IMG/VR virus record: IMGVR_UViG_3300020050_009209
DNA: 64,000 nucleotides
Reading direction: 5' to 3' (one strand)
From: a virus
Lineage: Duplodnaviria; Caudoviricetes
Shown here: positions 23,383 to 41,536 of the stretch, in pieces
Position numbering within the stretch: position 1 is the stretch's first letter
How the letters are laid out: each line of letters begins with the position of its first letter
Translations under genes and position numbers: made by a program
Notes under the pieces: model-generated
What the model was told of the DNA's origin: nothing
Seen by the model: only the letters and a program-made list of their open reading frames with translations
The model's database searches: none

Positions 23383-23418
23383 TTAAGCCTAGACCCCTCA
23401 ATCACGTAGGTCTTTACA

Positions 23419-23619
23419 TGGAGAGGTTGGCCACCTCAACCAGACACCTCTAGCGTATGGACTCGGTCCTACCTGAGAGGTTAACCTTGTAGCGATGAAA
23501 GAGAGCCCAAGTCAATGAATATAATCGTGCGGAGGGAGTCCGCTGTTAGAGAGTAAGTAGCCCTCCTGATCAGTGGGTACACTCTCGGGGTAGAGTTCCA
23601 AACGGAACTCTACCTTTTT
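23419..23619 (+). ncRNA. ~200-nt ncRNA copy 1 (own promoter and terminator)
   Basis: Homologous to 40905-41133(-); no conserved reading frame; covarying 3' stem. Confidence 0.85.
23589..23619 (+). terminator. intrinsic terminator
   Basis: ggtagagttcc-aaac-ggaactctacc-ttttt. Confidence 0.85.
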
Positions 23620-23695
23620 GGCGTTGAGAGTGGGAAATCAAGTAACTTTGAGTATTGTAGTTAAAGCCTCCTCTTCCCCGTACGTAGGTCTCTAC

Positions 23696-23938
23696 ATGAG
23701 CACCGCAAACTACCTCGCTCTCTGGCAAGCTGGAAACAACGAGGGGGACGGTTACGACCCTGACTTTGGAGGCGATGACGTCCATGCAGCTGCCGCAGGT
23801 TACGAGGGAGAGGGAGCCACCGTGCTCCACTGGTCGACCACGGACGATGACGTGACGGTTCTGGACTACTACGGCGTACTGATCGCCATTGGGGATGCTC
23901 ACGGTCCTTGGGCGGTCACGATTGACCGGGGTATCTGA
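23696..23938 (+). CDS. small acidic hypothetical protein
   Basis: ATG 9 nt after promoter; ends DAHGPWAV. Confidence 0.8.
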   Translation: MSTANYLALWQAGNNEGDGYDPDFGGDDVHAAAAGYEGEGATVLHWSTTDDDVTVLDYYGVLIAIGDAHGPWAVTIDRGI

Positions 23939-23975
23939 AATTTAGGCTTCCTCGTAAAACCTGATGGCGTAAAGT

Positions 23976-24146
23976 ATGCAACCTACTTCTTCGATTCTGG
24001 GCTCTGCTGCAAGTCATAAAACAGATCTCATGAGGGTTACTCAGGAGAACATCACTCGTCTTGAAGCTGCCCTTGTTGCTGGGTGGGACGTAAGAGAAGA
24101 ACTAGCTCTGGAACGCAGACGCCTTGAGGCGTACTCAAAGGAATGA
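23976..24146 (+). CDS. 56-aa protein (paralog of 41533-41733)
   Basis: RLEAALxAGWDV..xLxLERxR shared; not in ORF track. Confidence 0.7.
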   Translation: MQPTSSILGSAASHKTDLMRVTQENITRLEAALVAGWDVREELALERRRLEAYSKE

Positions 24147-24511
24147 CGATGCTGCAACTTAAGAAGTATGTCCTACCTAACTTTGGGGTAAGCTCGATTG
24201 AGCTACCTCGTGGAGCTACTGTCGTACACATTACTTTTGAAGGTACTAAGGCATTTGAATTTCCAGCTCTTTGGGTGCTGGAAAGCGTTCGTCCTAGAGC
24301 TGCCCTTGAGGGGTCTCTTGAAGAGAGAACGTTCAGGGCAGTGGAGACCCAAACCTACGGCCCTGACGTCTCTGATAGTTGGGAGGTTGCCCCTAACACA
24401 GTGGAAAAGTACCTTGGAGCATGCCCTGTCCTGAGAACAGACCCATGGGGTAAAGTTTACATGTGTGGCTCATTCCACGTTTTTGAGATAGTGACGCCCT
24501 TAGGTGGGTAG
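24143..24511 (+). CDS. hypothetical protein (paralog of 20335-20700)
   Basis: KKYVL..IELPRGA...LWVLE...RTF...HVFE. Confidence 0.8.
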   Translation: MTMLQLKKYVLPNFGVSSIELPRGATVVHITFEGTKAFEFPALWVLESVRPRAALEGSLEERTFRAVETQTYGPDVSDSWEVAPNTVEKYLGACPVLRTDPWGKVYMCGSFHVFEIVTPLGG

Positions 24512-24593
24512 ACCCAGCCTGAGCCACACAGAAAGCTTCGTCAGTGGGGTGGTTTGAGTTAAACTTCCTAGGCAACTCTTCGTAGGTACAGAC

Positions 24594-24854
24594 ATGAACA
24601 CCTCCTCTAAGGTTACGGTTGGCTCCTCGGTCAAAATCCTCAAGGGCTGTAGGGCTAGGAACATCTCCAAGGGGTCTGCCAAGATCCATGATGTGGTTGA
24701 GCTGGGAGCGGAGTACGGTGGAGGAGTTCGCGTTCTCCTCTCCTACAAGGGTCGACTTATCGCGTTCTACGCGAGACACACCAACCGGTTGGGGGACCCT
24801 GAGGTTAACCTCAACGATGGAAACCCCCTCCACAACATCAAGATCTCCCTCTAA
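24594..24854 (+). CDS. hypothetical protein
   Basis: ATG 9 nt after promoter. Confidence 0.8.
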   Translation: MNTSSKVTVGSSVKILKGCRARNISKGSAKIHDVVELGAEYGGGVRVLLSYKGRLIAFYARHTNRLGDPEVNLNDGNPLHNIKISL

Positions 24855-24861
24855 GGAAACG

Positions 24862-25344
24862 ATGAGTCCCCTTACAAATGAAGAGCTTCGCGAAGTGTAC
24901 CTCTCGGGGTTCGTGAAGTCCGCGCAGGACGTAACCTCTCAGGAGGACCCGCGTAGTGCAGGATTCCGAGCCTTGTTTGAGTACGGTCGAACTTACAACT
25001 CCACCACTTCGGCTCCAGGACCTGTGGAAGTCAAACTAAGTATCACCCCTGGGGTCGCCCGTGTAAACGCAGCACACCTAGCTTACACGGCCCCCAACAT
25101 CGTGTGCATCGATATTGACATGCACTCCAAGTATGCCGTCAGTGACGGTGGCGAGGATGGGGACCAGGACTTTGCGCCAGCGATCTACATTGAGGCGGAC
25201 GAGAGAACCCTCCATAAGCATACCAGATTCAAGAGGGATACTCGGGTAGCCTTCCCGGAGTTCAAGGGCTGGAAGGTTTACCTCCAGAGTTGTTGTCGCT
25301 ACACATGCCGGGTAGTTCTGGTTCGAGTAACTGAGGGGACTTAG
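24862..25344 (+). CDS. hypothetical protein
   Basis: AAGGA RBS before ATG 24862. Confidence 0.7.
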   Translation: MSPLTNEELREVYLSGFVKSAQDVTSQEDPRSAGFRALFEYGRTYNSTTSAPGPVEVKLSITPGVARVNAAHLAYTAPNIVCIDIDMHSKYAVSDGGEDGDQDFAPAIYIEADERTLHKHTRFKRDTRVAFPEFKGWKVYLQSCCRYTCRVVLVRVTEGT

Positions 25345-25347
25345 AGC

Positions 25348-25641
25348 ATGGCACTCAAGCAGAGAACAGAAGTAGTTCACATAGTGGACTACTTCGACCT
25401 AGATGCGTTCATCGAGGAAGCTTGCGGGATTGAAATCGAGTGCCAGCAGATCGAGTGTTGGGGTAATAACACCCAGCATCGGTTCGTTGCGAAGCCCCTT
25501 AGAAGCTACGAGAAGGAGTTGTGGGAGGAGATTAAAACTACCAAGGTGGTCAAGGACTACAGCCTCCGTACGATTTTGAACGGCCTCTGCACTGAAGGTA
25601 AGTTAGAGGAGGGCGTGTACCTCATCATGGTCTGCTGGTAA
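25348..25641 (+). CDS. hypothetical protein
   Basis: Ends GKLEEGVYLIMVCW. Confidence 0.8.
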   Translation: MALKQRTEVVHIVDYFDLDAFIEEACGIEIECQQIECWGNNTQHRFVAKPLRSYEKELWEEIKTTKVVKDYSLRTILNGLCTEGKLEEGVYLIMVCW

Positions 25642-25701
25642 ATTACTGCGAAGGGTATGAAACCAGTTAAGAGCCACTCTCAAGAAAACGTAGGTCTCAG
25701 T

Positions 25702-25926
25702 ATGAGCAATCGTAAAGACTCCCAAGGCTTCGATACGAAGGTGACCTTTCTGGGAAAGGGTTACGGGGTTCGAGTTCTCCGAAACGGTAAAGTCGTGTCG
25801 GAAGCTACGACACCTACAAAACTTCAAATCGGTTCGACCATCAAAGACATGCTCCGCATGATCGACAAGTGCGGGAACCCAAGCGAGATGGCTAGCTCCT
25901 CTCGCGACCGCAGAAAGACTGCTTGA
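25702..25926 (+). CDS. hypothetical protein
   Basis: ATG 9 nt after promoter. Confidence 0.8.
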   Translation: MSNRKDSQGFDTKVTFLGKGYGVRVLRNGKVVSEATTPTKLQIGSTIKDMLRMIDKCGNPSEMASSSRDRRKTA

Positions 25927-26636
25927 TGCTCTTTAGAGATATCCCACCATTCACTAGGTCATCCAGCTACATGGTCAACGTGGGGCTGGATTACCTGTCT
26001 GCTCACTACGCTCGGTACGTTGTACATTACGGGCTCGACGTGAACCCAGACTTCCAGCGTAACTACGTCTGGACTCCGGAGCAGAAGACTCGATTCGTTG
26101 AGTATTTTCTCCGAGGTGGTACGTCTGGGTTGGACATCTACGTGAACTCCCCAACGTTCCACGGTGGGAACTTGGGTCCAGAACACCCTGAGTCCTGGTG
26201 TGTTCTCGTGGACGGCAAGCAACGTCTGGACGCGGCCCTTGGGTTCCTCAACAACGAGGTCCCTGTTTTTGACGGACACTATTTCCGAGACTTCACGGAC
26301 AAGCCAAGGTTCACTCAGTGCAACTTTCGCTGGCATGTCAATGACTTGAAGACTCGCGAGGAGTGTCTTCAGTGGTACCTAGACCTCAACTCTGGTGGGA
26401 CGGTCCACCAGCCTGAGGAGCTAGACAAGGTACGAGAGCTTCTGGCTAAGAATGAGCCGTACGCTAAGCCGTCTCACGAAACCATCCTAAGTCAGTCTCG
26501 ACTCGACCGTCCATCGGTCCAGGAAGAGGTCCAACTGATTGCTGTAGAGCAGGAGAAGTACCGCCTCACGGCTGAAACGCGAAAGCAGAGCCCACCTCCC
26601 ATCAAAAAGAAGGGGCGCTCAAGGGGCGCCAGGTGA
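25923..26636 (+). CDS. DUF262 (GmrS/ParB-Srx-like) domain protein
   Basis: NPDFQRNYVW and VDGKQRL motifs. Confidence 0.85.
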   Translation: MMLFRDIPPFTRSSSYMVNVGLDYLSAHYARYVVHYGLDVNPDFQRNYVWTPEQKTRFVEYFLRGGTSGLDIYVNSPTFHGGNLGPEHPESWCVLVDGKQRLDAALGFLNNEVPVFDGHYFRDFTDKPRFTQCNFRWHVNDLKTREECLQWYLDLNSGGTVHQPEELDKVRELLAKNEPYAKPSHETILSQSRLDRPSVQEEVQLIAVEQEKYRLTAETRKQSPPPIKKKGRSRGAR

Positions 26637-26680
26637 GGATTTAAGTTAAGTCTCCCTCCGCTATCTACGTAGGGTCTAAC

Positions 26681-26878
26681 ATGAGAGTTAAAAACCAAGT
26701 CGTCGAGTGCGAGTTGACAGAGGAAGACATGGCTGTTCTGAGGGACATGGCATTCGAGTTCAAACGACGAGCCTGGAGGCTTCTCAAGAACTCAAACCCT
26801 GACTTGAGTGGGACGGCTACCGAGTCGGTAGCCACGCACCTGTGTAACGACCTGATCAAAGAGGTTCAATTCCGATGA
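26681..26878 (+). CDS. hypothetical protein
   Basis: ATG 9 nt after promoter. Confidence 0.75.
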   Translation: MRVKNQVVECELTEEDMAVLRDMAFEFKRRAWRLLKNSNPDLSGTATESVATHLCNDLIKEVQFR

Positions 26879-27462
26879 GTCACCATAGTAATCAAAGAGT
26901 AGTTATGCTCCCCCCTACCGTCTCATTTCACCCAAACTTTCTGAGAGACCCTGGGGCGGTATTTGATACCCTCCGGGGTGCATCAGCTTGGGAGCAGAAG
27001 AGTGTTCGAATCTATGGGAGGCACATCCCTCAGCCTCGCTTGATCGCGTGGTACGGGGACCCTGGCACCTCATACACGTACTCAGGGCTCAGGGTAGACC
27101 CCAACCCATGGTTCCCTGCCCTAGCCTCTCTGAAGGACGAGGTTGAACGAACTACGGGAGCCACCTTCAACTCGGTTCTCCTCAACCTGTACCGTAACGG
27201 GTCGGATTCTATTGCGTGGCATGCAGACGATGAACCGGAACTTGGCTCGGATCCGACGATCGCCTCTGTAAGTCTTGGAGCTACACGTAAGTTTCAGCTC
27301 AAACACAACCTGACGAAGCAGGCCTTCAGTGTAGACCTAACCTCAGGAAGTCTCCTCGTGATGGCTGGGAGCGTCCAGGAGAGCTACAAACACGCGGTTT
27401 TGAAAACGACCCGTCCTGTTGGAGAGCGGATTAACCTGACGTTTCGGCGAATTTTCAGTTAA
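26875..27462 (+). CDS. alkB: AlkB-family (ALKBH2/3-like) 2OG-Fe(II) dioxygenase
   Basis: PRLIAWYG, NLYRNGSDSIAWHADDE (HxD), distal H, RINLTFR. Confidence 0.92.
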   Translation: MSHHSNQRVVMLPPTVSFHPNFLRDPGAVFDTLRGASAWEQKSVRIYGRHIPQPRLIAWYGDPGTSYTYSGLRVDPNPWFPALASLKDEVERTTGATFNSVLLNLYRNGSDSIAWHADDEPELGSDPTIASVSLGATRKFQLKHNLTKQAFSVDLTSGSLLVMAGSVQESYKHAVLKTTRPVGERINLTFRRIFS

Positions 27463-27500
27463 GTCTCCCGCAAGGAGTGCCGTAGGTACTCTCGGAGGCA

Positions 27501-27719
27501 ATGAAAATGTCAGACTATCGAAAGTGGATCAAGAAGGTGGTGGCGCTTGTGAGTAAGCTCGGCTGGAAGGTCGACCAGAAGAACCACTACAAGTTCAAGT
27601 CCCCGAACGGAGGCACGACCGTGATCGCGCCTTGCACCCCCAGTAGTTACAACGCCATGTGGACGGTTCGGAGAGATTTCCGTAAGGCCGGACTCGAATT
27701 GGATATGAGCAGCCTCTAG
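27501..27719 (+). CDS. HicA-like mRNA interferase
   Basis: LGWKV..KNHYKFKSPNG..V..PCTPS pattern; 72 aa; GGAGG RBS. Confidence 0.65.
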   Translation: MKMSDYRKWIKKVVALVSKLGWKVDQKNHYKFKSPNGGTTVIAPCTPSSYNAMWTVRRDFRKAGLELDMSSL

Positions 27720-27725
27720 TTACTC

Positions 27726-27798
27726 GGGACCTTAGCTCAGTTGGTAGAGCTGCGGACTTTTAATCCGTAGGTCGTGGGTTCAAGTCCCACAGGTCCCA
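27726..27798 (+). tRNA. tRNA-Lys (anticodon TTT)
   Basis: Full cloverleaf: GGGACCT/AGGTCCC, D GCTC/GAGC, anticodon arm GCGGA-CTTTTAA-TCCGT, T-arm GTGGG-TTCAAGT-CCCAC. Confidence 0.97.
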
Positions 27799-27802
27799 CA
27801 AA

Positions 27803-27942
27803 CTGGATACTAACGTAGCGAAGGTGCCTAAGTTAGGACTCCAGCGAGGAGTTACCCGTTCCCACGTAGATAGAGTGCCTCACCCTTCCCCCACTGGACT
27901 TGTGAAGCCCAACCGGATGGTCAATGAGGTACTTAAACGGTA
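27803..27942 (+). ncRNA. putative structured RNA downstream of tRNA-Lys
   Basis: Stems CTGGA/TCCAG, CTAAC/GTTAG, TACCCGTT/AACGGTA, AGTGCCTCA/TGAGGTACT; no ORF; precedes terminator. Confidence 0.5.
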
Positions 27943-27943
27943 G

Positions 27944-27983
27944 AGAGGGAGGTTAGGATGCAGCTAACCTCCCTCTTGTTTTT
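27944..27983 (+). terminator. intrinsic terminator
   Basis: agagggaggttag-gatgcag-ctaacctccctct-tgttttt. Confidence 0.85.
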
Positions 27984-28200
27984 CTCTAGGGTGTGGAACC
28001 GAGGTGTAGTGTGTCTACTGTAAACGATGTTACCGGTACTGACCATGACGGGCTCTGCGAGGAGTGCGATGCACCCTTGACGCACGAGAATCTCATTGAG
28101 AGCAGCCTGGGTTTCTACTGTTCCGAGACATGCAAGGCTACGGCAGAGGACTACCCCTACGCCCCTTACCGCGAGGACTTCCACGCAGATTGAATGCAGC

Positions 28201-28518
28201 ATGTCAAAAAAGAACGTGAGGCAGAAGTTCAGGGACTTGGTCTTCACTCGGGACAAGCATGTTTGCCGGGTCTGTAAGGCCGTAGGTGGTGAGCTAGATG
28301 CGCACCACATTACAGATCGCAACCTGATGCCGGGTGGGGGCTATGTACCGGGGAACGGAATTTCCCTGTGCAAAGATTGCCACTTAAAGGCAGAGCACTT
28401 CCACTCGACAGGTACGAGCTTGCCAGGGTTTTCTCCAGAGGACCTGTACCAACTAATCGGTTCAAGTTATGCCGAAGCTCTTCGAGATTTAAGCACCTCT
28501 CTGGTTAAGCCGCACTAG
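28201..28518 (+). CDS. HNH endonuclease-like protein
   Basis: RDKHVCRVC...LDAHHI...NGISLCKDCH. Confidence 0.85.
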   Translation: MSKKNVRQKFRDLVFTRDKHVCRVCKAVGGELDAHHITDRNLMPGGGYVPGNGISLCKDCHLKAEHFHSTGTSLPGFSPEDLYQLIGSSYAEALRDLSTSLVKPH

Positions 28519-28538
28519 CAGAATCCGTAAGGCTTTAC

Positions 28539-28901
28539 ATGACCGACTACAACCTATCTAAGATCGATCAACTCTTCGTGTCCGGTTTGGAAGCCCACAT
28601 CGAGATGATGAAAGCTACTCCTGGTGAGGATGGCGTTACGCGTCAACTCGAAGCTCAAGCTCTTTTGCAGACGTTCAAGACCTTGGGGGCAACCCTAATC
28701 TTGCGGGTTGTACACGATGCACTAGCTGCGTCTACTGGGGAGCAAGAACAAACCATTGGTCTTGACTCGGCTTCCGTGGATTGGCACTTGAACCAACTCG
28801 TCACAAGTCTGGGTCGGGCACGAACAATTACCTCGAACTTGAGTCGACGCACTGCTAGTGAACTCCAGGGTATTCAGGCAAAATGGTCGAGCATTCTATG
28901 A
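28539..28901 (+). CDS. hypothetical protein
   Basis: ATG 9 nt after promoter. Confidence 0.75.
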   Translation: MTDYNLSKIDQLFVSGLEAHIEMMKATPGEDGVTRQLEAQALLQTFKTLGATLILRVVHDALAASTGEQEQTIGLDSASVDWHLNQLVTSLGRARTITSNLSRRTASELQGIQAKWSSIL

Positions 28902-29125
28902 TGGACGAAAAAGTGACTCTGTCTATGGAGCTTGCGACTCGCCTTAAGGACCTCGTGGGGGGCCTTCTCCGTAGAGTCTCTGATGTTGCATCAGATGACC
29001 CTAGGTTCGACTACTGTTGTGAGTTTTGCGGCAAACACTCCTCTGAACCTCACACGATTACGCATAAACCTGACTGTAAGGGGCTGGCCCTTCAGCGGGA
29101 GCTTCAGGAGGTTCTAGGTGGTTAA
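28898..29125 (+). CDS. hypothetical Zn-finger protein
   Basis: CEFC...HKPDC. Confidence 0.7.
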   Translation: MMDEKVTLSMELATRLKDLVGGLLRRVSDVASDDPRFDYCCEFCGKHSSEPHTITHKPDCKGLALQRELQEVLGG

Positions 29126-29525
29126 GTGGCGTATTCGTGAGCTTGGGCCCACCTTAGTGCTTGGAGATAGTACCGTCCGGTGCAATACTCTTGCGACAAA
29201 GGTTGCACAGTGGAGTCGTGAGGGTGGGTCGGATGGCCGAGCATTCCACTCTCATGGGAATGACTGGCACCACCGAGAGATTGAGCCTTGGATGGAGTCT
29301 ACCAAGCTCTGCCGTCAACCCATGATCGTATCTACGATGAACCCATACGTAGTAGATTGTCTTGGGTTACGAGACGCAGGGGATACCTACCTGGCTCTCA
29401 TTTTCTGCCCTACAGGGAGAGAGCCTTACAGCCCTACCTGGGAAGAGGCTCAGAGGATCTACGCTGCTTACAAGGCTGGCGTCCAGCACCTGAGTGAAAT
29501 TCTGAGGGTAGGTGGGTTTTGGTAG
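29118..29525 (+). CDS. hypothetical protein
   Basis: STMNPYVVD...QHLSEILR. Confidence 0.65.
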   Translation: MVKWRIRELGPTLVLGDSTVRCNTLATKVAQWSREGGSDGRAFHSHGNDWHHREIEPWMESTKLCRQPMIVSTMNPYVVDCLGLRDAGDTYLALIFCPTGREPYSPTWEEAQRIYAAYKAGVQHLSEILRVGGFW

Positions 29526-29527
29526 TC

Positions 29528-29716
29528 ATGAAAGACCAGTTGAACGAGAATAAAGCAGAACTCCGCCGTATTGCAGATGACCTGTGGGCCCTAGCAAAAG
29601 AGCGGTACCGAGTGGTTGGGGGCTCGGACGCAATGGTAGAGAAACTAAAGGTAACCTCCACCCAACTTCACGGTATTGCCTCAAGGCTTGACGCAAAGAC
29701 TCCGGTTAAATCCTAG
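29528..29716 (+). CDS. hypothetical protein
   Basis: + block; helical. Confidence 0.6.
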   Translation: MKDQLNENKAELRRIADDLWALAKERYRVVGGSDAMVEKLKVTSTQLHGIASRLDAKTPVKS

Positions 29717-29739
29717 CCCCTCTCTACGTAGGAGTAGGT

Positions 29740-30018
29740 ATGATTTACGCGGAAGTTCAGAAGGAAGTGGTTCTGGGCCTTGTGGGAGCCGACCTCATGG
29801 CCTGGTTCGAGTCTCAGATCAGGGAGTTCTGGGAAGCTGCCGCAGAAGACGATTACCAGGAAGCTGACAACTTCAGGTTTGCTCTCGTTGGGGACGCTCA
29901 CAGTGAGGGTCTCTACGATGACGCAGTCTCTGATGGCTGCTGTGGAGCCTATGACATGCTGTTCGCCCATCCGAATGGGCAACATACCTTCAAGTACGGG
30001 TTTAACTACGGCCACTGA
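29740..30018 (+). CDS. acidic hypothetical protein
   Basis: ATG 9 nt after promoter; DNFRFA...GCCG..D...GFNYGH. Confidence 0.85.
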   Translation: MIYAEVQKEVVLGLVGADLMAWFESQIREFWEAAAEDDYQEADNFRFALVGDAHSEGLYDDAVSDGCCGAYDMLFAHPNGQHTFKYGFNYGH

Positions 30019-30212
30019 TTTCGTAGGAGTAGTTAGGAAAGCCGAAACCAACGGGAGGTCCCCATGCTTATTGAAATGACGCTAAAGCAGGCGAGGTTGC
30101 TCGGGATTGTCGTGTGTGCTCATTGCGGCATGCCGCCCAACAACCACTGGGGTGACGGGAAGCCTGGAGGTAAGTGCGCTCACGTGCGCTCACGACTCGA
30201 AATGTCCAGGCT

Positions 30213-30608: not shown

Positions 30609-30611
30609 CCC

Positions 30612-32756
30612 ATGTTCAAGCCAGGCGAAATCGCACGAGTCAACAACTCTGATCTCACGGTCACCGTCCTAGCTGGGACGCCTGAGGGTTCTCCCCTTAC
30701 GTGGCCTATCCAGACCGACGCTGGAGTGTACAATGAGAGTGATCTCTCTCCTGCTCACCCATCGGTTCTAGCCACGGTGGAGGCAAAGGAGATAGGTTTC
30801 GTAGAGCGCCCTTCGAGTGCGAATAAGGAAATCCTGCCCTTTGATCTCCGAGACAAGATCGAGAGTATCATCAAGGGGGCCAAAATTGACCTTCGAGGGC
30901 ACTGGAAAAATGGGGCCCTGCTAGAGGGTATGTCGGTAGGTCCCTCAATTTTCATCCACGTTACCTCAATGTCGACAGCAGACGCTAAGGCTGTACTACA
31001 AGCGAATAGCAAGAAGACTCCTCTCGACCGCTGGGTCCCAATCGACGTCCACCTGTCAAATCTCCCTCGAACGTGCTCGTTCTGCGGGGCAGAAGACTTC
31101 TACCTGGAGACGAACGGAATCGAAGTTCGTCTTGCGTCAGATCCGTGCCCTTTCGAGGCGGGTCTTCCGCCCACGGAATGGGAGCTGAATGTTCCTAGCG
31201 GTAAGTTGATTGTTGCCAACGATCTACGCCAGATTTTCCCCCTCCCTGAGGCTGAGGACTTTAGCTTCAACACGGCATACGGTTGCAAGCAAACGGCGCT
31301 TGCCTATGCCCAGCACGGGATGTCTCATGCTTTCGTGGGGAACACCTGCCCAGCAGTCTACCAGCTAGAGAAAGGGGTATACAAGATCGCCAATGCCCCC
31401 TCCACTGAGATGTGGAACGGTAAGAAATACGTCGACATTGACCCTCCTACACCCTTCGATGGTAAGCAGGTTGCGGGCATTTGTACGGATCTCTGGTGGT
31501 ACTCTATCTGTGATCAGGCTGAATTCAAGCGTCGATGCAAGCGATTTGGACTCAAACAGGCTGAGTTCAACGTTGAGGTAGTCAACGTTAAACCCGGTGT
31601 CTACCGGTTCCGCCATAACGACTTTGTTGATCGAGGTGGCCCTGAGGAGGTAGTGTACGCTCAATTCGAGTGGGTACGAGAGCCAGATCCGGTCAAGAAT
31701 TACTTGGAGTCGTACGAGCAGGTTGAAGTTAACCCTCACGCTTACGTACAGGCCATGGCGTGGAGATGGCCAACCCTCTACGGTACTGGCAAAAAGACCG
31801 CATGGGAGAACCTGAAACCTGAAGATAAAAGCCGGGCTTGGAGGCTCGTTACAGACTCTGTACTGTGCCTTCTCGGTGGTGGAATCAAATGGCACGAGAG
31901 GGGCTTCCCCTGCGCTAAGGTTGACGCGTCTATTCCTGACGTAGAGCCACCCTCATTCCGGTCCCAGCAGCACTGGTACCCGTTTTCTCGACCCTACGGT
32001 GGACTATTCGCGCCCAAGCTCAGTCCCTCATTCGCGAAGTTGGCCTTCCGTGTTCTGGAGTCTGTAATCTCGTTTGGGACGACAGTCCAAGACAGTCTTC
32101 GTTCTCGTGCGGTTGAGGATGTTCGGGATCGAATGCTCTTGGCTGTTCAGCGCTACCGAGAGCTGGCACTAGAGCATCCACTTGAGGCTGACCCTGAGTA
32201 TGTTAACTGGCTTGGCCAGGAGGGGCGTGCCGAGTCTTGGGTTGCAAACTTCCCTCTAGGTCCTGAGTTCACGGAAAAGCACCGTAAACACAAGGAAAGT
32301 CAGAGGTGGGTTCCTGAGGGTACGTACGCTATCGCGTTCGACGCTCGGGAGATCGATAAGGAAAGTGGGGGGTTTGCTTGGCATCCCTCGAAGGGTGGGT
32401 GCTGGGCGAACAAGAAAGACGCAGAGCGCTATGCCATTCTAGGGGGAGAGACCCACGGTGATAACGGGGAGAATTGCTTCTGGAGCACACACGCCACGAA
32501 CACCTCGGTACCGCTCTTCTCAGTTGCTCGGGTTGTTGGCCTCGGGGAGGTCTCACACATGGGAGAGACGATTATCGAGGTGGCCTACGACTACGGCACC
32601 CCCTGGATGCAAGGGGAGACTCGAAAGGGGATCCCAGAAAAGGGGGGTGGGATCAAGCTCTTGACGAAGGAAGAGTATGACCTTCTACTACCTGAAGCGG
32701 TACAGTTTTTCGAGAAGGCTGAGAAGGCCTCTCGGAAAAAGGAGAAAAATTCATGA
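30612..32756 (+). CDS. large hypothetical protein (714 aa)
   Basis: Longest ORF; motifs PSGKLIVANDLR, FVGNTCP, ICTDLWWYS. Confidence 0.9.
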   Translation: MFKPGEIARVNNSDLTVTVLAGTPEGSPLTWPIQTDAGVYNESDLSPAHPSVLATVEAKEIGFVERPSSANKEILPFDLRDKIESIIKGAKIDLRGHWKNGALLEGMSVGPSIFIHVTSMSTADAKAVLQANSKKTPLDRWVPIDVHLSNLPRTCSFCGAEDFYLETNGIEVRLASDPCPFEAGLPPTEWELNVPSGKLIVANDLRQIFPLPEAEDFSFNTAYGCKQTALAYAQHGMSHAFVGNTCPAVYQLEKGVYKIANAPSTEMWNGKKYVDIDPPTPFDGKQVAGICTDLWWYSICDQAEFKRRCKRFGLKQAEFNVEVVNVKPGVYRFRHNDFVDRGGPEEVVYAQFEWVREPDPVKNYLESYEQVEVNPHAYVQAMAWRWPTLYGTGKKTAWENLKPEDKSRAWRLVTDSVLCLLGGGIKWHERGFPCAKVDASIPDVEPPSFRSQQHWYPFSRPYGGLFAPKLSPSFAKLAFRVLESVISFGTTVQDSLRSRAVEDVRDRMLLAVQRYRELALEHPLEADPEYVNWLGQEGRAESWVANFPLGPEFTEKHRKHKESQRWVPEGTYAIAFDAREIDKESGGFAWHPSKGGCWANKKDAERYAILGGETHGDNGENCFWSTHATNTSVPLFSVARVVGLGEVSHMGETIIEVAYDYGTPWMQGETRKGIPEKGGGIKLLTKEEYDLLLPEAVQFFEKAEKASRKKEKNS

Positions 32757-33027: not shown

Positions 33028-33117
33028 ATGAGCAACAACACAACCCACGACTACAAGATCACGAACATCCGAGCTGGCAAGGGGAACCGGTCCCACATTC
33101 TCTACGCGTGTCGATGA
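33028..33117 (+). CDS. 29-aa microprotein or truncated gene
   Basis: ATG 9 nt after promoter; followed by hairpin 33145-33171. Confidence 0.5.
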   Translation: MSNNTTHDYKITNIRAGKGNRSHILYACR

Positions 33118-33192
33118 CGATTCTGTTCCGTTTTGAAACTTAAGAGGGGTGGTAGTTAGTACTACCACCCCTTCTTTCACATAAGGTAATGT

Positions 33193-34596: not shown

Positions 34597-34598
34597 TT

Positions 34599-34874
34599 AT
34601 GCCTCAGGATGGAACCCAGGCAATCCTAAACGAGGCCGTGAGCGTCATCGAGAGACTCTTCCGTAAAGGTAAATTTCAGGTGGTGGACCAAGCTCTCACT
34701 TACCTGAAGGTTGATGCTATACCGTCAGAGGTGCTACTTGGAATTCTAACCATAACCTTCCACGCTAAGGAACACCTCCCCTCTCGACCCGCTTTCTTAG
34801 CTGAAGCTGAGCCTGTCTTGGTTGCAAGGCTAGGATCTCAACGTGCCAACGCTCTACTGAAATACAGACGATAA
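34599..34874 (+). CDS. hypothetical protein
   Basis: + block. Confidence 0.7.
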   Translation: MPQDGTQAILNEAVSVIERLFRKGKFQVVDQALTYLKVDAIPSEVLLGILTITFHAKEHLPSRPAFLAEAEPVLVARLGSQRANALLKYRR

Positions 34875-35263
34875 TGATTGAAGACTCTCGTTCCAAAGTC
34901 CCAACCCCAAGCCATCCCACACCAGACAAGCTAGCCCCACTTCTTTACGAAGCTTACGGTAAAGCTCAGAATTGGGAGCGCCCCTCAGGGGAGGTCCTTC
35001 CCGATTGGTCAAGGCTCAGCGAGGAACCTCAGAGGGCCTGGTTACACCTAGCTAAAATGGCTATCGCACGTGTCAACGATGTGACCGGAGAGCAGTTGTA
35101 CGCATGTTTTCAGTATAGTCTTGTGCTACATCCGGTTACGGGGCGGTTCACTAGAGTTCCAAGCCAAGAGTGTTACCCGGAGTTTCCTATTGAGTTGCAG
35201 AGTGCTTGGGACTCCGCAGCTGAAGCTTTCAATAGGGTTGTACGAGGGGGTTATGCGTTGTAA
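34874..35263 (+). CDS. hypothetical protein with internal repeat
   Basis: LYEAY...LPDW..L...QRAW repeated as LYACF...YPE...LQSAW. Confidence 0.75.
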   Translation: MIEDSRSKVPTPSHPTPDKLAPLLYEAYGKAQNWERPSGEVLPDWSRLSEEPQRAWLHLAKMAIARVNDVTGEQLYACFQYSLVLHPVTGRFTRVPSQECYPEFPIELQSAWDSAAEAFNRVVRGGYAL

Positions 35264-35555
35264 GGACAGGTGGCATGGGGAACTTGTACTGACGTTCCAA
35301 CGACTTGCAGGTAAACCTCCTAAGGGCCGTCGATGGAATCGTGCTTGGAGACGTAGACTACTCTCAAGCTTTGAATATCACACGGAGGTTGCTGCGAGAG
35401 TTATGGCTGCGGAAATGGAGCGGGTCGAGAATGACCGGATATTGAACGACCTGATCAACATGGCTAAAGCCCATTGGGACGACACTCATGCTGTCCCGTA
35501 CGACTCTGAAACTGCTGAGAATTTGTACCTCAACTATGACTACCAAATCGACTAA
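35253..35555 (+). CDS. hypothetical protein
   Basis: GAGG RBS before ATG 35253. Confidence 0.65.
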   Translation: MRCKDRWHGELVLTFQRLAGKPPKGRRWNRAWRRRLLSSFEYHTEVAARVMAAEMERVENDRILNDLINMAKAHWDDTHAVPYDSETAENLYLNYDYQID

Positions 35556-36378
35556 GCCAGGCGAGACCATCAAAGTTGCAGTAGCCAACAACGTCCTTCT
35601 AGAGGTCCCCATTTGGGAGGCTCACTTTCGAGGATCCAATTGGATGGCTGTAATTAACGTAGACGGATCCAGTCCTGGAGGTTTGAGCCGTAGGTTTATG
35701 CCAAGAGGCAAGGGGGATTGCTTCTACTTGCTTGAACAACTCCAGCTCTTCGACCCGATCGAATTTGGTGCGGACTACACGACCTCGGTTGGAACTAAGA
35801 AACGAGACCGTTGGTACGGTGTAGTCACTGCGGTCACAGACGGGCACCTAAGCATCGAGAGGACCTCGACAGGGGTAGCGGCCGTCCTGAGAGCCAAAGC
35901 GGCTAGAGAGTCCCCTAGAGATAGAGCAATGGCCCTCCGTGAGACCCTTCAGGCTCACCTAGACCAGGTGGTTGCCATTGAGAGGGAAATTCACGAGCTT
36001 GACCGGACCCCCGTGGAGTCTGAAGTGCCAGCAGATCTACCTACGGTACCGTTTTCCGTAGAAGACTACCAAGCGCCTGCGGTCCCACCTACAGCTGAGC
36101 AGCTAGCCGATTTGTTTAGCGAAGTCGAGCGTACAAAAGATTGCGTTGTGAGAGTTTGGGTATCCCCAACGAGTGTTCGAGTCTTGAAGTCACTTCCAGG
36201 CTTTACCCTGTGTTCTAGCCTCACCCCTGAGGTCTTTGGAAGTCTCTGGGGGGCAACGTTTTTAGTATCCCCAAAGATCCCACATGGGAGGGTATACCTT
36301 ACCCCAGGCAAACTTGAGGATGCCGATCTGGTACCAGAGTGGACCCCGGTACCAGAAGAATTGCAATCTTGGGGTTAA
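35536..36378 (+). CDS. two-domain hypothetical protein (C-terminus resembles a capsid A-domain fragment)
   Basis: GSLWGATFLVSPKIPHGRVY; stop in promoter TTAA. Confidence 0.75.
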   Translation: MTTKSTKPGETIKVAVANNVLLEVPIWEAHFRGSNWMAVINVDGSSPGGLSRRFMPRGKGDCFYLLEQLQLFDPIEFGADYTTSVGTKKRDRWYGVVTAVTDGHLSIERTSTGVAAVLRAKAARESPRDRAMALRETLQAHLDQVVAIEREIHELDRTPVESEVPADLPTVPFSVEDYQAPAVPPTAEQLADLFSEVERTKDCVVRVWVSPTSVRVLKSLPGFTLCSSLTPEVFGSLWGATFLVSPKIPHGRVYLTPGKLEDADLVPEWTPVPEELQSWG

Positions 36379-36408
36379 AGATTCCTGACTCTCTCCGTAT
36401 GGTAGAGT

Positions 36409-36738
36409 ATGAAAACCACCACGAAGTTTACGGTTGAGCGCGACGGGCGTGAAGTTACCCTCCTGGTGGAGGCGGATTACTACCCTGGTTCTCCAGGAAG
36501 GACCTACGGACCTCCTGAGAACTGCTATCCCCCTGAGGGGTCGGAACTCGTGGTCTCCAAGCTGACTCTGAACGGCCAGGTTTGGGATGACGCCCTCACG
36601 GATGAGGAAGAGGACGACATCGTTAACACCATGTTGATGGAGGCGGACGCCGCTGAGGAGGAAAGTCCGGAGTACGACTACGACGATCCCCCTCACGAGG
36701 ACTTCTGTAGCTACGAGGACTACTGCGACTACGAGTGA
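36409..36738 (+). CDS. highly acidic small protein
   Basis: ATG 9 nt after promoter; GPPENCYPPE; D/E/Y-rich tail. Confidence 0.85.
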   Translation: MKTTTKFTVERDGREVTLLVEADYYPGSPGRTYGPPENCYPPEGSELVVSKLTLNGQVWDDALTDEEEDDIVNTMLMEADAAEEESPEYDYDDPPHEDFCSYEDYCDYE

Positions 36739-36800
36739 GCCTCAAACAAAAGCCGAGTGGGAAGTCCACACTCGGCTTTTTACGTACTGGAAAGTTAAGT

Positions 36801-37073
36801 ATGAACCCTAGGAACCCTAAGTCCAAGTCGCCTAAGTCCAAGTCACCTCTCTGCTTCGAGGCTAGACGGTACGACCTCTCAGCCGAGGAGGCTCGGGAGG
36901 AGCTTCTGAGTATTCGTAGCCTCCTTGACGACCTTCTAACGAAGTCGTCAGACATGCATCGACTTCGAGTCGTATCCGAGTTGAAGGCAAAGTTGACCTT
37001 CGGATTTCGCACGATCGACGACTTGGCAGTTTTGAGTCATATCGCAAACCGACGTAAGCCGCGTAAGACTTAG
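36801..37073 (+). CDS. hypothetical protein
   Basis: PKSKS tandem duplication; last gene of + block. Confidence 0.6.
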   Translation: MNPRNPKSKSPKSKSPLCFEARRYDLSAEEAREELLSIRSLLDDLLTKSSDMHRLRVVSELKAKLTFGFRTIDDLAVLSHIANRRKPRKT

Positions 37074-37090
37074 ACTTCACACAAAGCGAA

Positions 37091-37124
37091 GAAGGGGGAG
37101 GTTGCTAGAACAACCTCCCCCTTC
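37091..37124. terminator. bidirectional terminator at convergence
   Basis: gaagggggaggttg-ctagaa-caacctcccccttc. Confidence 0.85.
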
Positions 37125-37128
37125 TCTT

Positions 37129-37734
37129 TCACGGGTCTTGTGGGACAATCACGGCAACCGACTGGTCTGGGTAGTGAGTGATTACGTTGATTAGAGCCGC
37201 ATCCACAAGCTTCTGAGCCTGAGTAAGCAAGTCTTCGTCGACCTGCTCGAATGCGTCCTCGTGGTGATCTTCCAGCCACCCTGCACACTCACGATGAAGG
37301 TCAACGGTAGGTGCCTCAGCTTTGGTGCCCCACACGAAACGAACGCCGTCAACCTCAGAGCACTCCCTGACGTCCCCATCCCAGTCGTCAGCTTCGATGT
37401 AATGGTCGTCCCCAGGGGCAACTACAAGCCCACGGTAACGCTCCATGGGTACCTTCGTGGCAGCTCGGAATGCGGCCTCAAGGGAAGCTCTCTCACTCAG
37501 CACCTTACAGGGATCGCAGTAGCCAGAGTAGTGGAATCGAGGCGAGGCCCCACAGGTTATACATTCTGGTAGGTCGCAATGCTTACGAACCGCAGCAATG
37601 GCTCGCTCTTGAGCTTCAGGCCCCTCTCCAAAGGAGGACACGAAGACGAGAAACCTGCAATGCCCCTCATTTCCACCACAGAATGCTGCGTAGGGGTTCC
37701 CATTTCTATCGTAGGCTAGGATTGGTTCAGTCAT
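37129..37734 (-). CDS. hypothetical protein
   Basis: CITC...CDPC; start moved to ATG 37734. Confidence 0.75.
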   Translation of the reverse strand: MTEPILAYDRNGNPYAAFCGGNEGHCRFLVFVSSFGEGPEAQERAIAAVRKHCDLPECITCGASPRFHYSGYCDPCKVLSERASLEAAFRAATKVPMERYRGLVVAPGDDHYIEADDWDGDVRECSEVDGVRFVWGTKAEAPTVDLHRECAGWLEDHHEDAFEQVDEDLLTQAQKLVDAALINVITHYPDQSVAVIVPQDP

Positions 37735-38040
37735 GCTCTTCTCAATCAAATGTGTAGTGAAATATGCCCCACTTAACTTCAACCGACTCGTAGGCCTTAC
37801 TTAGGGAGGGAATCAAGTCGACTGCAAAGATCCGCATCCCCTCTATGGCGAGGTCTTTCTCAGCCTCAGATGGGATCTGGCATGCTTCGGAAAATTCCTT
37901 GCATGTGGCTTTTGACAGCCTCCTCCAACCGGAAGAGCTTGTCCTGAAGGTCTTTCGCCGTACCCTCTAGAATCTCTTGAGCCCGTTCTTGACAGAGGGC
38001 ATTGTACTGCTCCATGAGCAACTCTATGAAGAGTTTAGGG

Positions 38041-38418
38041 TCAATGTCTACTCCGTTGACAGACACCTTGACGTCTACTTCCAGTTCTCGACATGCGCTC
38101 GAATTCGCAGCGCAGCTTTCGCAGCGCGTGCGCCTCGATGCATCGGACGCGCTCCCTGCTCAGCCCGAGCACGTCGGCGATCTCTTGCAGCGTCATCGCG
38201 TACTCGGTCACCTCGTGCGGTTCACGCTCGCTCTCCCCCTCCTCGACGCGTGCCGCGCTCGCGTCGTAGATGCGGGGCCCAAAGGCATCTTCTAGGTCTC
38301 GCATCGTGCCGAGCCGCAACGACTCATCGCGCTCGAACTCGTCGGGGCGATGGGACAGGAGGAGCGCGCGCAGCCGCGGCGTCAGTCTGCGCCACTGCTC
38401 AGCCTGCTTTGGCGTCAC
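38041..38418 (-). CDS. sigma70 region-4 HTH protein on GC-rich insert
   Basis: MTLQEIADVLGLSRERVRCIEAHALRKLR matches the region 4.2 consensus. Confidence 0.85.
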   Translation of the reverse strand: MTPKQAEQWRRLTPRLRALLLSHRPDEFERDESLRLGTMRDLEDAFGPRIYDASAARVEEGESEREPHEVTEYAMTLQEIADVLGLSRERVRCIEAHALRKLRCEFERMSRTGSRRQGVCQRSRH

Positions 38419-38457
38419 TTCGCTACTCCGTTGACAGACACCTTGACGTCTACTTCC
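38048..38457. mobile_element. 340-bp insertion flanked by perfect 35-bp direct repeats
   Basis: ctactccgttgacagacaccttgacgtctacttcc at 38048-38082 and 38423-38457. Confidence 0.85.
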
Positions 38458-38624
38458 GAGTCAGCCTTCACCCCATCCGGGAAGTAGGTTCGAGCGAAGT
38501 CCACCTCCCCATCCTTTCCGGACATAGCTCCTAGAAGGAGCTTGGCAAAATCAGTGTTTCCGGTCAGACTCATTGCAGGATACTTCATGTCCTTACCTAC
38601 GTATCGACCAAGGTACGGTTTAAG

Positions 38625-38846
38625 CTATATTCGATCCACCCAAAGCAACTTCTGCATGGTTACGGAGTACCAACATCCGAGGAAGAACGTTGCAACCACT
38701 GAGATAATGGTACCTACTCCGGAGTAAGCCATTCCGAGGAACATGAGTAGCATGAGAACAACAAGGGTTGTTAGCGTGACTACAGCCTTCAATTGAAGCT
38801 CCTTGCTAACAATTTGTCGAGGTCTAGCGCTCGCTGGCGAATCCAA
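38625..38846 (-). CDS. putative membrane protein
   Basis: Two hydrophobic segments; start uncertain. Confidence 0.55.
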   Translation of the reverse strand: MDSPASARPRQIVSKELQLKAVVTLTTLVVLMLLMFLGMAYSGVGTIISVVATFFLGCWYSVTMQKLLWVDRI

Positions 38847-39094
38847 TCTGGAACAGGAGGTCCTTCTAGGGACCTCGCCTTATTGATCCTACAACGGAGC
38901 TTTTCTCTTTCCTCATCCAACTCCGCTTTGATGCGGGCGGTCTGAGCTTTAGACACTCCTCGAAACTCTTCGTCATGGGCTTTACACAAGGTACTGACAA
39001 GCTTATTGCCTTCGTACCACTGAGTGTACGCAACCACTTCACAGTGATCACACGGGGTGTTCGGACCGAGACGCTTCTCTTGCTTTCCTAGCAT
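38789..39094 (-). CDS. hypothetical protein
   Basis: CDHC...CKAH. Confidence 0.7.
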   Translation of the reverse strand: MLGKQEKRLGPNTPCDHCEVVAYTQWYEGNKLVSTLCKAHDEEFRGVSKAQTARIKAELDEEREKLRCRINKARSLEGPPVPDWIRQRALDLDKLLARSFN

Positions 39095-39138
39095 TTACTT
39101 CCTCTCAGAACGCATTGCAAAACGTTAATAGCACAGAT

Positions 39139-39447
39139 TCAGTGGAGGGTTGGTTGAACATTCGCCGCTCGAAGAGCCTCTAGGATTTTCTCGGCCTGGT
39201 ACTGCATGAACCCAGCTTGAATTGCATCCTTCGGGGGGAGGTCTAGCCCTTGATTAATTAGGCAACTTACCGTTTCCTGGATGTAGGACTCTCGTATACG
39301 TTCTGAGTCTACCGTCCACACCCCATCAGGGCTCGTAAAGCCTACTCTTGTGCGCGATGGTAGTATAGGGTGGACTTTTGGCGCCCCATGAATTCGGCAT
39401 TGCTCCGTAAGCTTAGCGAGGAATTCCTCGAAGGTGTAAGTGCTCAC
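39139..39447 (-). CDS. hypothetical protein
   Basis: GTGA coupling. Confidence 0.65.
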   Translation of the reverse strand: MSTYTFEEFLAKLTEQCRIHGAPKVHPILPSRTRVGFTSPDGVWTVDSERIRESYIQETVSCLINQGLDLPPKDAIQAGFMQYQAEKILEALRAANVQPTLH

Positions 39448-39791
39448 TTAACCAGCCTTGTATTGACTACAACCATAGCCTCCTTGTGCGTTAGACCTTC
39501 GAGATAGCCCGGACTAGCCCCCACAACCAAGAAGTTACCGTACATTGCTCTCCCGCTCGGTATGAATCGATTGAAAGGTAGGTGCTGAATGTCCCTGTTT
39601 GAGAGGACACTGAACATCCCCTCTCGGGTAAGCTCTAAGTTTGAAACCCCAAGTAGAAAATGAGCTTCCTGGAAGAGACGATCGTCACGTCTACCTAAGT
39701 CAACGATTTTAGGCTTGTCCCCAACTCGGTAAAGTACGGCCTTAGACTTGAGACTAGGAGTTGAGTTCAGGTTCGGGTTGTTCTTATGCAA
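39444..39791 (-). CDS. divergent DUF3846-like protein
   Basis: LPFNR...YGNFLVVG...GLT. Confidence 0.55.
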   Translation of the reverse strand: MHKNNPNLNSTPSLKSKAVLYRVGDKPKIVDLGRRDDRLFQEAHFLLGVSNLELTREGMFSVLSNRDIQHLPFNRFIPSGRAMYGNFLVVGASPGYLEGLTHKEAMVVVNTRLVK

Positions 39792-39800
39792 GTCAATGCC

Positions 39801-40025
39801 TCAGTCTCGATCGGGTAGCTTACCGGTCACTGCCAACAACACCCAGGTTGCGAACATGGTAGCAAGATACAGGACCGGAGGAATGAAAACGATGTACCAT
39901 CTTGTCATAGAGATGATACCTACGGCAAGGGAAATCACTAGGAAAAAGTTGATAAGGTAGGCGACAAAGAAGGTTGAGATGACCCACTTAACGAGCGCAT
40001 CCGATTCAGCCTTGCTTTGACTCAT
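39801..40025 (-). CDS. putative membrane protein
   Basis: Two TM segments; ATGA coupling. Confidence 0.7.
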   Translation of the reverse strand: MSQSKAESDALVKWVISTFFVAYLINFFLVISLAVGIISMTRWYIVFIPPVLYLATMFATWVLLAVTGKLPDRD

Positions 40026-40501
40026 GGGTAACGGTGACCTGTCCAAGTGCTTGTCGTAAGGTCCCACTCCATCGGAGTGTCGATAATGACCTCTGGGTCC
40101 TTCCGCCAAGTAGAGAGCCGAAAGGTTCCTCTGGGGCCTATAATCTGCCTAGTCTTTTGACTATCCCCTGTCTCTAGGTTGTAGAGACCAGGCCAAATCC
40201 GTTGACCTACGGGGAAAAACACCTCTCCTTTGGGGTTAAGCTGTACGGCTTCCCATTCGAGGAGCTTCTCTAGGGTCACGTCAGCAAACCCTGGTAGTTC
40301 TTGGATGTTGCGGTACCGACATTCGAAGAGCCTTGGGAGGGGCCGTAGCGCGTCAATAACCGCCTGCTTGCACTGAGGGCACCAGGTACTGTCATTCAAG
40401 GGAGCGTTACAACCATGCCCACTTCCCTGATAGCTGTATCGAGTCCCACAATGAGAACAGCGCTTGAGCTGATGAGTCGTCATATACTTCGTTACACTCA
40501 C
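40022..40501 (-). CDS. hypothetical Zn-binding protein
   Basis: RCSHCG..Y.YQGSG...WCPQC. Confidence 0.75.
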   Translation of the reverse strand: MSVTKYMTTHQLKRCSHCGTRYSYQGSGHGCNAPLNDSTWCPQCKQAVIDALRPLPRLFECRYRNIQELPGFADVTLEKLLEWEAVQLNPKGEVFFPVGQRIWPGLYNLETGDSQKTRQIIGPRGTFRLSTWRKDPEVIIDTPMEWDLTTSTWTGHRYP

Positions 40502-40904
40502 TTCGACTCAAGCTCCACTGGAGTCGACTGGAAATTAGGTTGAGATGCCGCAAGCACCCAATTCAAGTAGGCATCATACCCGATCGTACCAAAGGACTTC
40601 CACGCAAGAGCTTCACGGGAAGGTTTCTCATTCAGGTTCGGCTTCGGGCAGTCGGGTCGAGTAATCATATCAGTAACTACGAACATTGCACTCAGCTACT
40701 TAACTACTTTATAGGTAGTCTCCTTAGCACATGCAGAATAGAGAGGTGGGTGGGCTCTCTTAGCCACTTTTGCAATCGAAGGGAGAGCTTCACCAAAGGG
40801 GTTGCCCCCCAGCGCACGGGTCTAAAGTAGGGGCCGTAGTAAAATTCGTCTAACATCGGGGGTTACTTACGCTACCTCCCCTTGGTAGTCAAATGCTAGC
40901 ACGC

Positions 40905-41133
40905 AGAAAGGCCTACCCGTTTTAAGGTAGGCCTTCTCTTACCAGGTGAAGAGACTTGTGGTCTCTCCCGAGGAACCTAACTCTTGATCAGAAAGCTAGG
41001 GTTCCTCTGCAAGCGGACTCCCTCCGCACGATTATATTCATTGAGGTCTCTTTCGTCGCTACAAGGTTAACCTCAGGTAGGACCGAGTCCATACTCTAGA
41101 GGTGTTCTGGTTAAGGTGGCCAACCTCTCCAGT
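40905..41133 (-). ncRNA. ~230-nt ncRNA copy 2 (own promoter and terminator)
   Basis: Homologous to 23419-23619; promoter 41143-41168; terminator hairpin 40905-40937. Confidence 0.85.
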
Positions 41134-41164
41134 CATGTTACTTACGTTCGTCTCGCCCTACACT

Positions 41165-41536
41165 TTAACCAAGAACTTCGATTTTCTCCCCTGCGGTAAG
41201 AGTCTCGATCGTATCTAGGATCCAACGTAGCTCCCTACTAGGGGAGTTTACTTCGATGTCGGACTCGTCATCAATGTTTGAACCCGACAGTCGAACAGTG
41301 TCAGAGAGGAAGCAAAGGTCGAAAGACCAATTTTCAGTGGACCATTCCGCTTGAACTCCACCCTCTGGCGTTGGGTAGATGTAAACTCTGGCCTCTAGGA
41401 TATCTTCCACACGGGGGAGATACTCTCGTGCTGTCTCTATGGCTGCCCTCGAAGGTGCGAACCCACAGCCATCTAGCCACCCATCTTTGAGGTTAAGTAA
41501 CTCAGTCAACCTCGCGTTGATCGTTTCCAGACTCAC
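41165..41536 (-). CDS. hypothetical protein (LKDGW family)
   Basis: LKDGWLDG..APS...IYPTPEGGVQAEW; stop in promoter TTAA. Confidence 0.8.
   Translation of the reverse strand: MSLETINARLTELLNLKDGWLDGCGFAPSRAAIETAREYLPRVEDILEARVYIYPTPEGGVQAEWSTENWSFDLCFLSDTVRLSGSNIDDESDIEVNSPSRELRWILDTIETLTAGEKIEVLG

Follow-up and report, generated by a model that had tools for sequence, protein, structure and literature searches.

Our analyses indicate that a 64,000-nucleotide stretch of viral DNA (IMG/VR record IMGVR_UViG_3300020050_009209, Duplodnaviria, Caudoviricetes; hereafter the window) carries, in two copies, a gene that, judging from its sequence, encodes a stand-alone, selected and structured non-coding RNA (ncRNA) without a family in Rfam. 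We consider it highly probable that this is a real functional RNA. A first-pass annotation, made from the letters of the window alone, had reported the RNA as present twice, and both copies were located together with all the sequence blocks quoted for them. Their cores (23419-23544 on the plus strand and 41131-41012 on the minus strand) are 90.6% identical over 127 alignment columns (115 identical columns; E 1.7e-44). On the 5′ side the similarity ends abruptly 1-2 nt from the predicted end of the RNA, and 3′ of the core it is reduced to a hairpin with a common loop, followed by unrelated end hairpins (Table 1). The predicted RNA has a folded body of ~170 nt and measures 200-230 nt including its terminator. 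No third copy was found in the window; a third match to the RNA model, at 53249-53351 (E 0.003, 16.9 bits), consists of two generic hairpins without the core words and was rejected. The annotation could name no known RNA family, and this was borne out by a search of Rfam 15 at E values up to 10, in which copy 1 had no match and copy 2 only two chance matches (E 3.8 and 6.9) to eukaryotic or viral models of microRNAs (miRNAs) or small nucleolar RNAs. The source genome is that of a jumbo phage; the exact proteins of the window occur on contigs of which the longest has 381,772 bases, and the genes of the window are small and mostly of no known family.

Both copies are preceded by the motif TTAA-N18-CGTA, as had been noticed, and this motif is found 40 times in the window against 1.5 times in shuffled sequences. 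Other TTAA/CGTA spacings mostly yield 0-3 matches (8 for N17). An A lies exactly 9 nt past CGTA in 33 of the 40 motifs, and in 28 of them an ATG; because of this placement, the motif is probably a phage promoter for leaderless messenger RNAs (mRNAs), with transcription starting at the +9 A. The shared core of both copies begins 1-2 nt past the start predicted in this way, and neither the promoter spacers, which are unrelated, nor the terminators can be aligned between copies 1 and 2. The RNA would be transcribed, and early, as first annotated. Each copy had also been said to end in a terminator hairpin: both hairpins indeed fold, but a simple terminator scan of the window lists neither of them, and the U tail, of 5 U in copy 1, is only UUUCU in copy 2. 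Among relatives, changes in the copy 2 terminator hairpin fall inside or beside its loop. The words GGUAG/CUACC occur in both end hairpins (23589-23614; 40908-40935), and a CUACC in the core could pair with the terminator arm over 6 and 8 bp, at a predicted probability near 0 and possibly by chance. Because the genes 3′ of both copies own separate promoter motifs (at 23661 for copy 1 and 40703 for copy 2), neither RNA is a leader; these promoters come after the terminator-like hairpins, and at neither site was a gene found that the RNA could control within the same transcript, as a riboswitch or other cis-acting leader does.

Table 1. Predicted features of the two RNA genes in the window.
Feature	Position	Strand	Remarks
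Copy 1 promoter motif TTAA-N18-CGTA	23383..23408	+	predicted start 23418, 9 nt past CGTA
Copy 1 conserved RNA core	23418..23544	+	holds helix 23492-23496/23524-23528 around a 27-nt purine-rich loop
Copy 1 3′ hairpin	23549..23586	+	loop CUGAUCA at 23566-23572
Copy 1 terminator-like hairpin, at least 11 bp plus U tract	23589..23619	+	pairing probability 0.96
Copy 2 promoter motif TTAA-N18-CGTA	41143..41168	-	predicted start 41133
Copy 2 conserved RNA core	41012..41133	-	in 30/30 related loci
Copy 2 3′ hairpin, ~15 bp	40970..41007	-	loop CUGAUCA at 40991-40985; pairing probability 0.82-0.87
Extra hairpin, copy 2 only	40948..40967	-	pairing probability 0.97
Copy 2 terminator-like hairpin, short U tail	40905..40935	-	pairing probability 0.88

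The upstream neighbour of copy 2 served to gather 30 related loci with flanks 91-99% identical, and every one of them has the copy 2 RNA at the same site. Several of these loci come from related samples, and overall they hold six distinct copy 2 sequences; the variant set compared below comprises seven distinct sequences of two allele types. In five more distant loci the core differs from that of the window copy 2 at 1-6 positions in 120 nt. Four loci show 4-7 changes per 168 nt of RNA relative to the window, whereas four-fold degenerate sites have diverged by 11-12% and the downstream spacer by 10-12% (binomial P 1.8e-5 to 2.4e-4), and a closer fifth locus has 1 change per 168 nt against 5.8% (P 4.9e-4). 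The RNA evolves 3-6 times slower than synonymous sites, at about the pace of codon positions 1 and 2 (3.9%). Purifying selection acts on it, in agreement with the initial description of a selected RNA. The site of copy 1 presents another picture. There, 28 related loci lack the RNA and have a small CxxC gene in its place, and copy 1 is present only in two contigs, both identical to the window; the gene upstream of it, coding for 182 amino acids (aa), belongs to a cluster of one sequence. From the presence in 30 of 30 loci at one site and the absence from 28 at the other, copy 2 is the resident gene and copy 1 a lineage-specific extra allele. Since hairpin stem, terminator and promoter spacer all differ between the copies, the sequences suggest that copy 1 was acquired from a more distant phage through recombination and is not a fresh duplicate.

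The predicted 3′ hairpin is the best-supported structural element of the RNA. It had been described as diverged in sequence yet paired in both copies around the same loop, CTGATCA, and this holds in so far as the arms are identical at only 17 of 39 positions (44%) whereas the loop is identical at 7 of 7; three double changes in the stem keep the pairing. Were the loop to vary like the arms, the chance of finding it unchanged would be about 0.003. Less secure is the closed loop of copy 1: past a U-U mismatch, a single C-G pair shuts the 7 nt, and in ViennaRNA the loop widens to 11 nt, so that a 7-nt loop with an equivalent of the tRNA (transfer RNA) residue U33 is clear in copy 2 and marginal in copy 1. 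The loop contains the self-complementary UGAUCA, able to form 6 bp with itself (-5.2 kcal/mol). The variable stem may well be a spacer arm and the loop the working part. In OLE and GOLLD RNAs, a conserved loop on a variable stem is the sign of an intermolecular contact (10.1101/2024.12.08.627333), palindromic and kissing-loop pairing is common among RNA dimers (PMC12990946), and kissing loops also underlie the oligomerisation of RNAs of <200 nt, among them manA, a motif that occurs in phages (10.64898/2026.07.01.735769). We favour a kissing site over an anticodon-like function for this loop, with a confidence that stays just short of even because the loop never varies and so allows no direct test.

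Both copies are predicted to fold more stably than shuffled sequences, with z values of -2.6 and -4.1. According to the models, the core adopts either of two folds of similar energy: fold A, made of local hairpins and including a 14-pair stem that tolerates a 2-nt indel and one G-U change unbroken, or fold B, which combines an AGAGGU/ACCUCU stem with a long-range GGACUC/GAGUCC helix. They are 0.6-6.3 kcal/mol apart in all seven variants, the preferred one depending on the variant. The two stems of fold B had been presented as kept between the copies; they are present in both, but they are kept by identity rather than covariation and exist in only one of the two competing folds. The AGAGGU/ACCUCU stem has one double change in loci L054 and L062 and one mismatch in the L063 group. 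At one pair of the helix 23492-23496/23524-23528, four variants have U-A, two have C-A and one has C-G, and the purine-rich loop enclosed by this helix absorbs most of the indels. Two core pairs vary in a compensated manner. Double changes affect 4 and 5 pairs in folds A and B, above all 500 shuffles, an excess that derives mostly from the common 3′ hairpin, in a set of related sequences from which the structures themselves were built. Even within predicted helices the core sequence is nearly invariant, which indicates tertiary contacts, a protein partner or catalysis.

From these features we propose a possible mode of action. The sigma factor of the phage itself would transcribe the RNA along with many small leaderless accessory genes. 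The nearly invariant core would then take a compact fold and have its sequence recognised by a partner, most likely some protein which the RNA binds or soaks up: either a host defence or RNA-processing factor, or an RNA-binding protein of the phage. The 3′ hairpin would be a spacer arm presenting UGAUCA for loop-loop kissing, so that the RNA would work as a dimer or small oligomer in which both alleles are able to cross-pair, the lineage of the window having presumably acquired its second allele with a recombined segment. That the RNA acts in trans through a protein partner seems to us slightly more probable than the contrary. Given its position among other small accessory genes and the RNA repair genes that this phage carries, its most likely role is that of a protein-binding decoy or scaffold; the first-pass annotation had named decoy and scaffold as possibilities, while passing over the self-complementarity of the loop, the lineage-specific nature of copy 1 and the two competing core folds. 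The combined account, a trans-acting ncRNA that dimerises via its self-complementary loop and binds a protein, is more tentative, a conjecture possible rather than probable.

Several points weigh against this account. No protein partner could be linked to the RNA, the neighbours being without useful family matches and differing between the two sites. As the loop is invariant in all seven sequences, selection for palindromy itself is not demonstrable, and by calculation a 7-nt loop holds a 6-nt palindrome ~3% of the time by chance. Covariation in the core amounts to two single events, because there are just two allele types and seven distinct sequences, and the high core identity of the two copies could partly stem from recent recombination between them. 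Finally, no distant homologue appeared beyond this phage group in the collections searched: blastn against INPHARED phages gave only chance matches at E 7 and against PLSDB plasmids no homologue; exact or gapped patterns found none in viral contigs; the 24 matches of a pattern search of metagenome contigs were all chance; those in species genomes were all rejected by the RNA model; and sequence and structure models run on 15-23 virus records, including jumbo phages that share a 714-aa protein with the window, reached a best E of 0.47. Those virus records are without the promoter motif, and a promoter-pattern scan of the viral collection revealed no member of this phage group. Because the records and the collection searched seem to be without such members, these blanks are weak evidence of absence. 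So far, the RNA family has been seen in one narrow phage group.

Other explanations have to be set against a protein-binding, kissing RNA. A base-pairing small RNA (sRNA) regulator of mRNAs from host or phage, seeded by the loop or by the purine-rich loop in the core, would fit the typical size and the possession of an own promoter and terminator. The loop also starts with a YUNR U-turn motif, of a type familiar from antisense loops. This explanation is nonetheless unlikely: in an antisense target search covering the window, the longest complement had 14 nt, against 10-15 in shuffles, the best duplex with the first 60 nt of promoter-driven transcripts scored -42.5, against -42.8 ± 3.4, and pairing with Shine-Dalgarno or anti-Shine-Dalgarno sequences was not in excess (P 0.19-0.26). 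We hold in similarly low regard a catalytic RNA belonging to no class yet described; this would account for the extreme constraint on a core near-invariant even in predicted helices, and some short words are reminiscent of twister (GAGGG) and group I P7. Against it, no Rfam ribozyme matched at E up to 10, no substrate or flanking exon is obvious, and, with hand-typed descriptors, the core words of hammerhead, hepatitis delta virus (HDV), twister loop 4, pistol, hatchet, hairpin, glmS, group I S element, group II domain 5 and RNase P are absent; of self-cleaving ribozyme core words in proper order nothing was found, just a lone GAGGG. A group I intron was also tried and rejected, as GGACUC/GAGUCC is P7-like but unbulged, with only 40 nt upstream and no interrupted gene. 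The similar energies of folds A and B in all seven variants, with a varying preference, would suit a two-state switch in which the core toggles between them on binding a ligand or partner, and ACCU is found 4-5 times where ~1 would be expected (P 0.002-0.006, a post hoc observation), so that helix swaps are possible. Among near-identical sequences, however, alternative folds persist automatically, the RNA has no dependent gene downstream and the terminators are self-contained, all of which makes a switch improbable. Equally improbable is a decoy of the isoleucine tRNA anticodon loop (GAU) that would divert an anticodon nuclease of the host or a tRNA-sensing defence. The 7-nt loop has equivalents of C32, U33 and A38, RNA repair genes are found in the window (RlaP-like, AlkB-like) and RNA ligases nearby in relatives, and phage tRNAs do neutralise defences of this kind, PARIS and retrons (PMC11464382, PMC11555353), so that the RNA shares with them an anticodon-like loop and a possible counter-defence role. 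Yet those are complete tRNAs, whereas here D, T and acceptor arms are absent, neither ARAGORN nor Rfam recognises a tRNA, the stem has ~15 bp in place of 5, and the position 37 equivalent is C in all seven variants, a pyrimidine where tRNAs have a strictly conserved purine (PMC7812866). Such a decoy would also leave the 126-nt core unexplained, and the early comparison of the loop to an anticodon is not borne out.

More doubtful still is an element acting as DNA, or a replication primer in which the promoter-made RNA would prime or open an origin. A short AT-rich stretch in the core and several small inverted repeats speak for it, but the G-U-tolerant changes and the covarying hairpin indicate a single-stranded RNA fold, a terminator-like hairpin follows directly 3′, and both copies are oriented towards a zone where transcription converges. 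The GC skew just tracks gene direction. The first-pass annotation had further considered a promoter mimic that binds RNA polymerase in the manner of 6S RNA, given the presence in the RNA of TATAAT and of GGTTAA, the latter being the upstream half of the phage promoter motif. 6S RNA is defined by a long hairpin with a central bubble. In spite of a similar length and a stand-alone gene, neither of our folds has this long irregular hairpin or bubble, Rfam gives no 6S match, the promoter-like words lack the layout of a promoter (no CGTA lies 17-18 nt from the internal TTAA, and the phage promoter is of another type), and TATAAT reads TATAGT in loci L035 and L038, the varying base being paired in a helix. 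A promoter mimic is accordingly very unlikely, and the suggestion does not survive. Least credible of all would be a leaderless mRNA for a short peptide. Copy 1 does have an AUG at its predicted start, which opens 11 codons, and a 25-codon frame of copy 2 is open in all variants; but the two frames differ, the copy 2 ATG precedes the predicted start by 3 nt and is replaced by GTG in eight L063-group loci, that frame has three non-synonymous changes to one synonymous, and conservation runs far beyond both stop codons. Indels of 1, 2 and 5 nt between the copies abolish any common frame, as had been stated from the beginning, and no conserved peptide frame with a synonymous bias typical of small proteins was found across the two copies and the variants. 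Some minor candidates were rejected outright: a restriction-site decoy (the window shows no avoidance of TGATCA, TGGCCA or GTTAAC, with observed/expected ratios of 1.0, 1.0 and 0.7, and 2-3 six-base palindromes are expected anyway in 170 nt), a CsrA-type sponge (GGA motifs are not enriched) and a box C/D-like arrangement (partial matches with the wrong spacing).

As a best guess by analogy, the mode of action of the putative protein-binding RNA may be likened to that of manA, GOLLD and ROOL, without membership in these families. Like manA (RF01745; 10.64898/2026.07.01.735769), it is phage-borne, shorter than 200 nt in its body and of unknown function, and the assembly via kissing loops of manA is here only proposed. 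It differs from manA, a putative 5′ leader element, in being a stand-alone unit, in its lack of a match to RF01745 at E up to 10, and in that manA kisses through different loops (L5-L7′, L8-L9′) instead of one self-complementary loop. GOLLD, ROOL and OLE (10.1101/2024.12.08.627333; PMC12990946) are likewise orphan structured RNAs, the first two occurring in phages, and their trait of a conserved loop on a variable stem recurs in our 3′ hairpin. They are, however, much longer (550-830 nt against ~170 nt), our RNA matches none of them in Rfam, and it does not lie beside a tRNA, the nearest tRNA gene being 4 kb from copy 1. The Y RNAs that associate with Ro60 (YrlA, RF02553) are more distant: our RNA has no tRNA-like module and no Rfam match, its ends are unpaired, GGUC/GACC can pair in copy 2 and not in copy 1, and no Ro60 was detected among the scanned neighbours.

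The genome holds other elements of interest. At 46473-46705 (minus strand) lies a tRNA-like RNA that has CCA and the acceptor, D and T arms but in which ~180 nt replace the anticodon arm, a layout reminiscent of YrlA Y RNAs. It is 96% identical in L027, against 82-89% in coding regions, an RNA ligase (RLIG1) gene adjoins it there, and Rfam gives just a 17-nt T-arm match. At ~22100-22660 (plus strand), a long, hairpin-rich stretch free of open reading frames is kept in relatives and has no Rfam match. In L090-L115 it continues straight into an element corresponding to 23256-23382, forming ~800 nt without a called gene, and in the window the 182-aa gene interrupts it; the two parts together are a candidate for a large structured RNA. 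The 23256-23382 element has a 25-bp perfect inverted repeat around 77 nt and shows 95% conservation in L029. Among relatives the element runs into the small CxxC gene, which is followed by a diverged copy of the 3′ half of the element, and a shortened copy stands at ~22652-22686, ahead of the 182-aa gene; it is likely a leader element and a cassette-exchange site. Two ~110-nt elements at 18904-19010 and 19344-19455 (plus strand) have common loop words on different stems, and Rfam gives only a chance match to a miRNA model. An exact 35-bp direct repeat (38048-38082/38423-38457, 375 nt apart) bounds a small insert. The sites CTCGAG, GAGCTC and CTGCAG are absent from the window, where 24, 30 and 13 are expected, a strong avoidance that points to host restriction enzymes and may offer a clue to the host. 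The 714-aa protein (30612-32756, plus strand) is a widespread jumbo-phage protein of no known family: it lacks a Pfam family, its ~300 relatives include many encoded on 100-660 kb contigs, and an alignment of 33 sequences has 104 invariant columns. Proteins that match ribosomal bL12 (PF00542) are encoded in the relatives L028 (5805-6086) and L054 (3095-3502); a comparison with the Atlas yielded nothing usable for them.

Thousands of candidate phage RNA motifs of unknown function have already been catalogued (PMC10690425), which limits any claim of novelty. What the sequences support here is a real, selected phage RNA family, uncatalogued in Rfam 15 and of narrow known range. A bolder possibility, which we regard as a long shot, is that the core is an undescribed catalytic or ligand-switched RNA, or that the palindrome assembles a counter-defence RNA directed against a host protein, as a plug-in cassette exchanged among jumbo phages. 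The RNA is small, with defined ends and two natural alleles, and therefore amenable to in vitro work. Counter-defence and host takeover by jumbo phages have been described mostly for proteins and tRNAs; if our proposal is correct, a selected and swappable accessory cassette made only of RNA would extend the short list of trans-acting phage RNAs.

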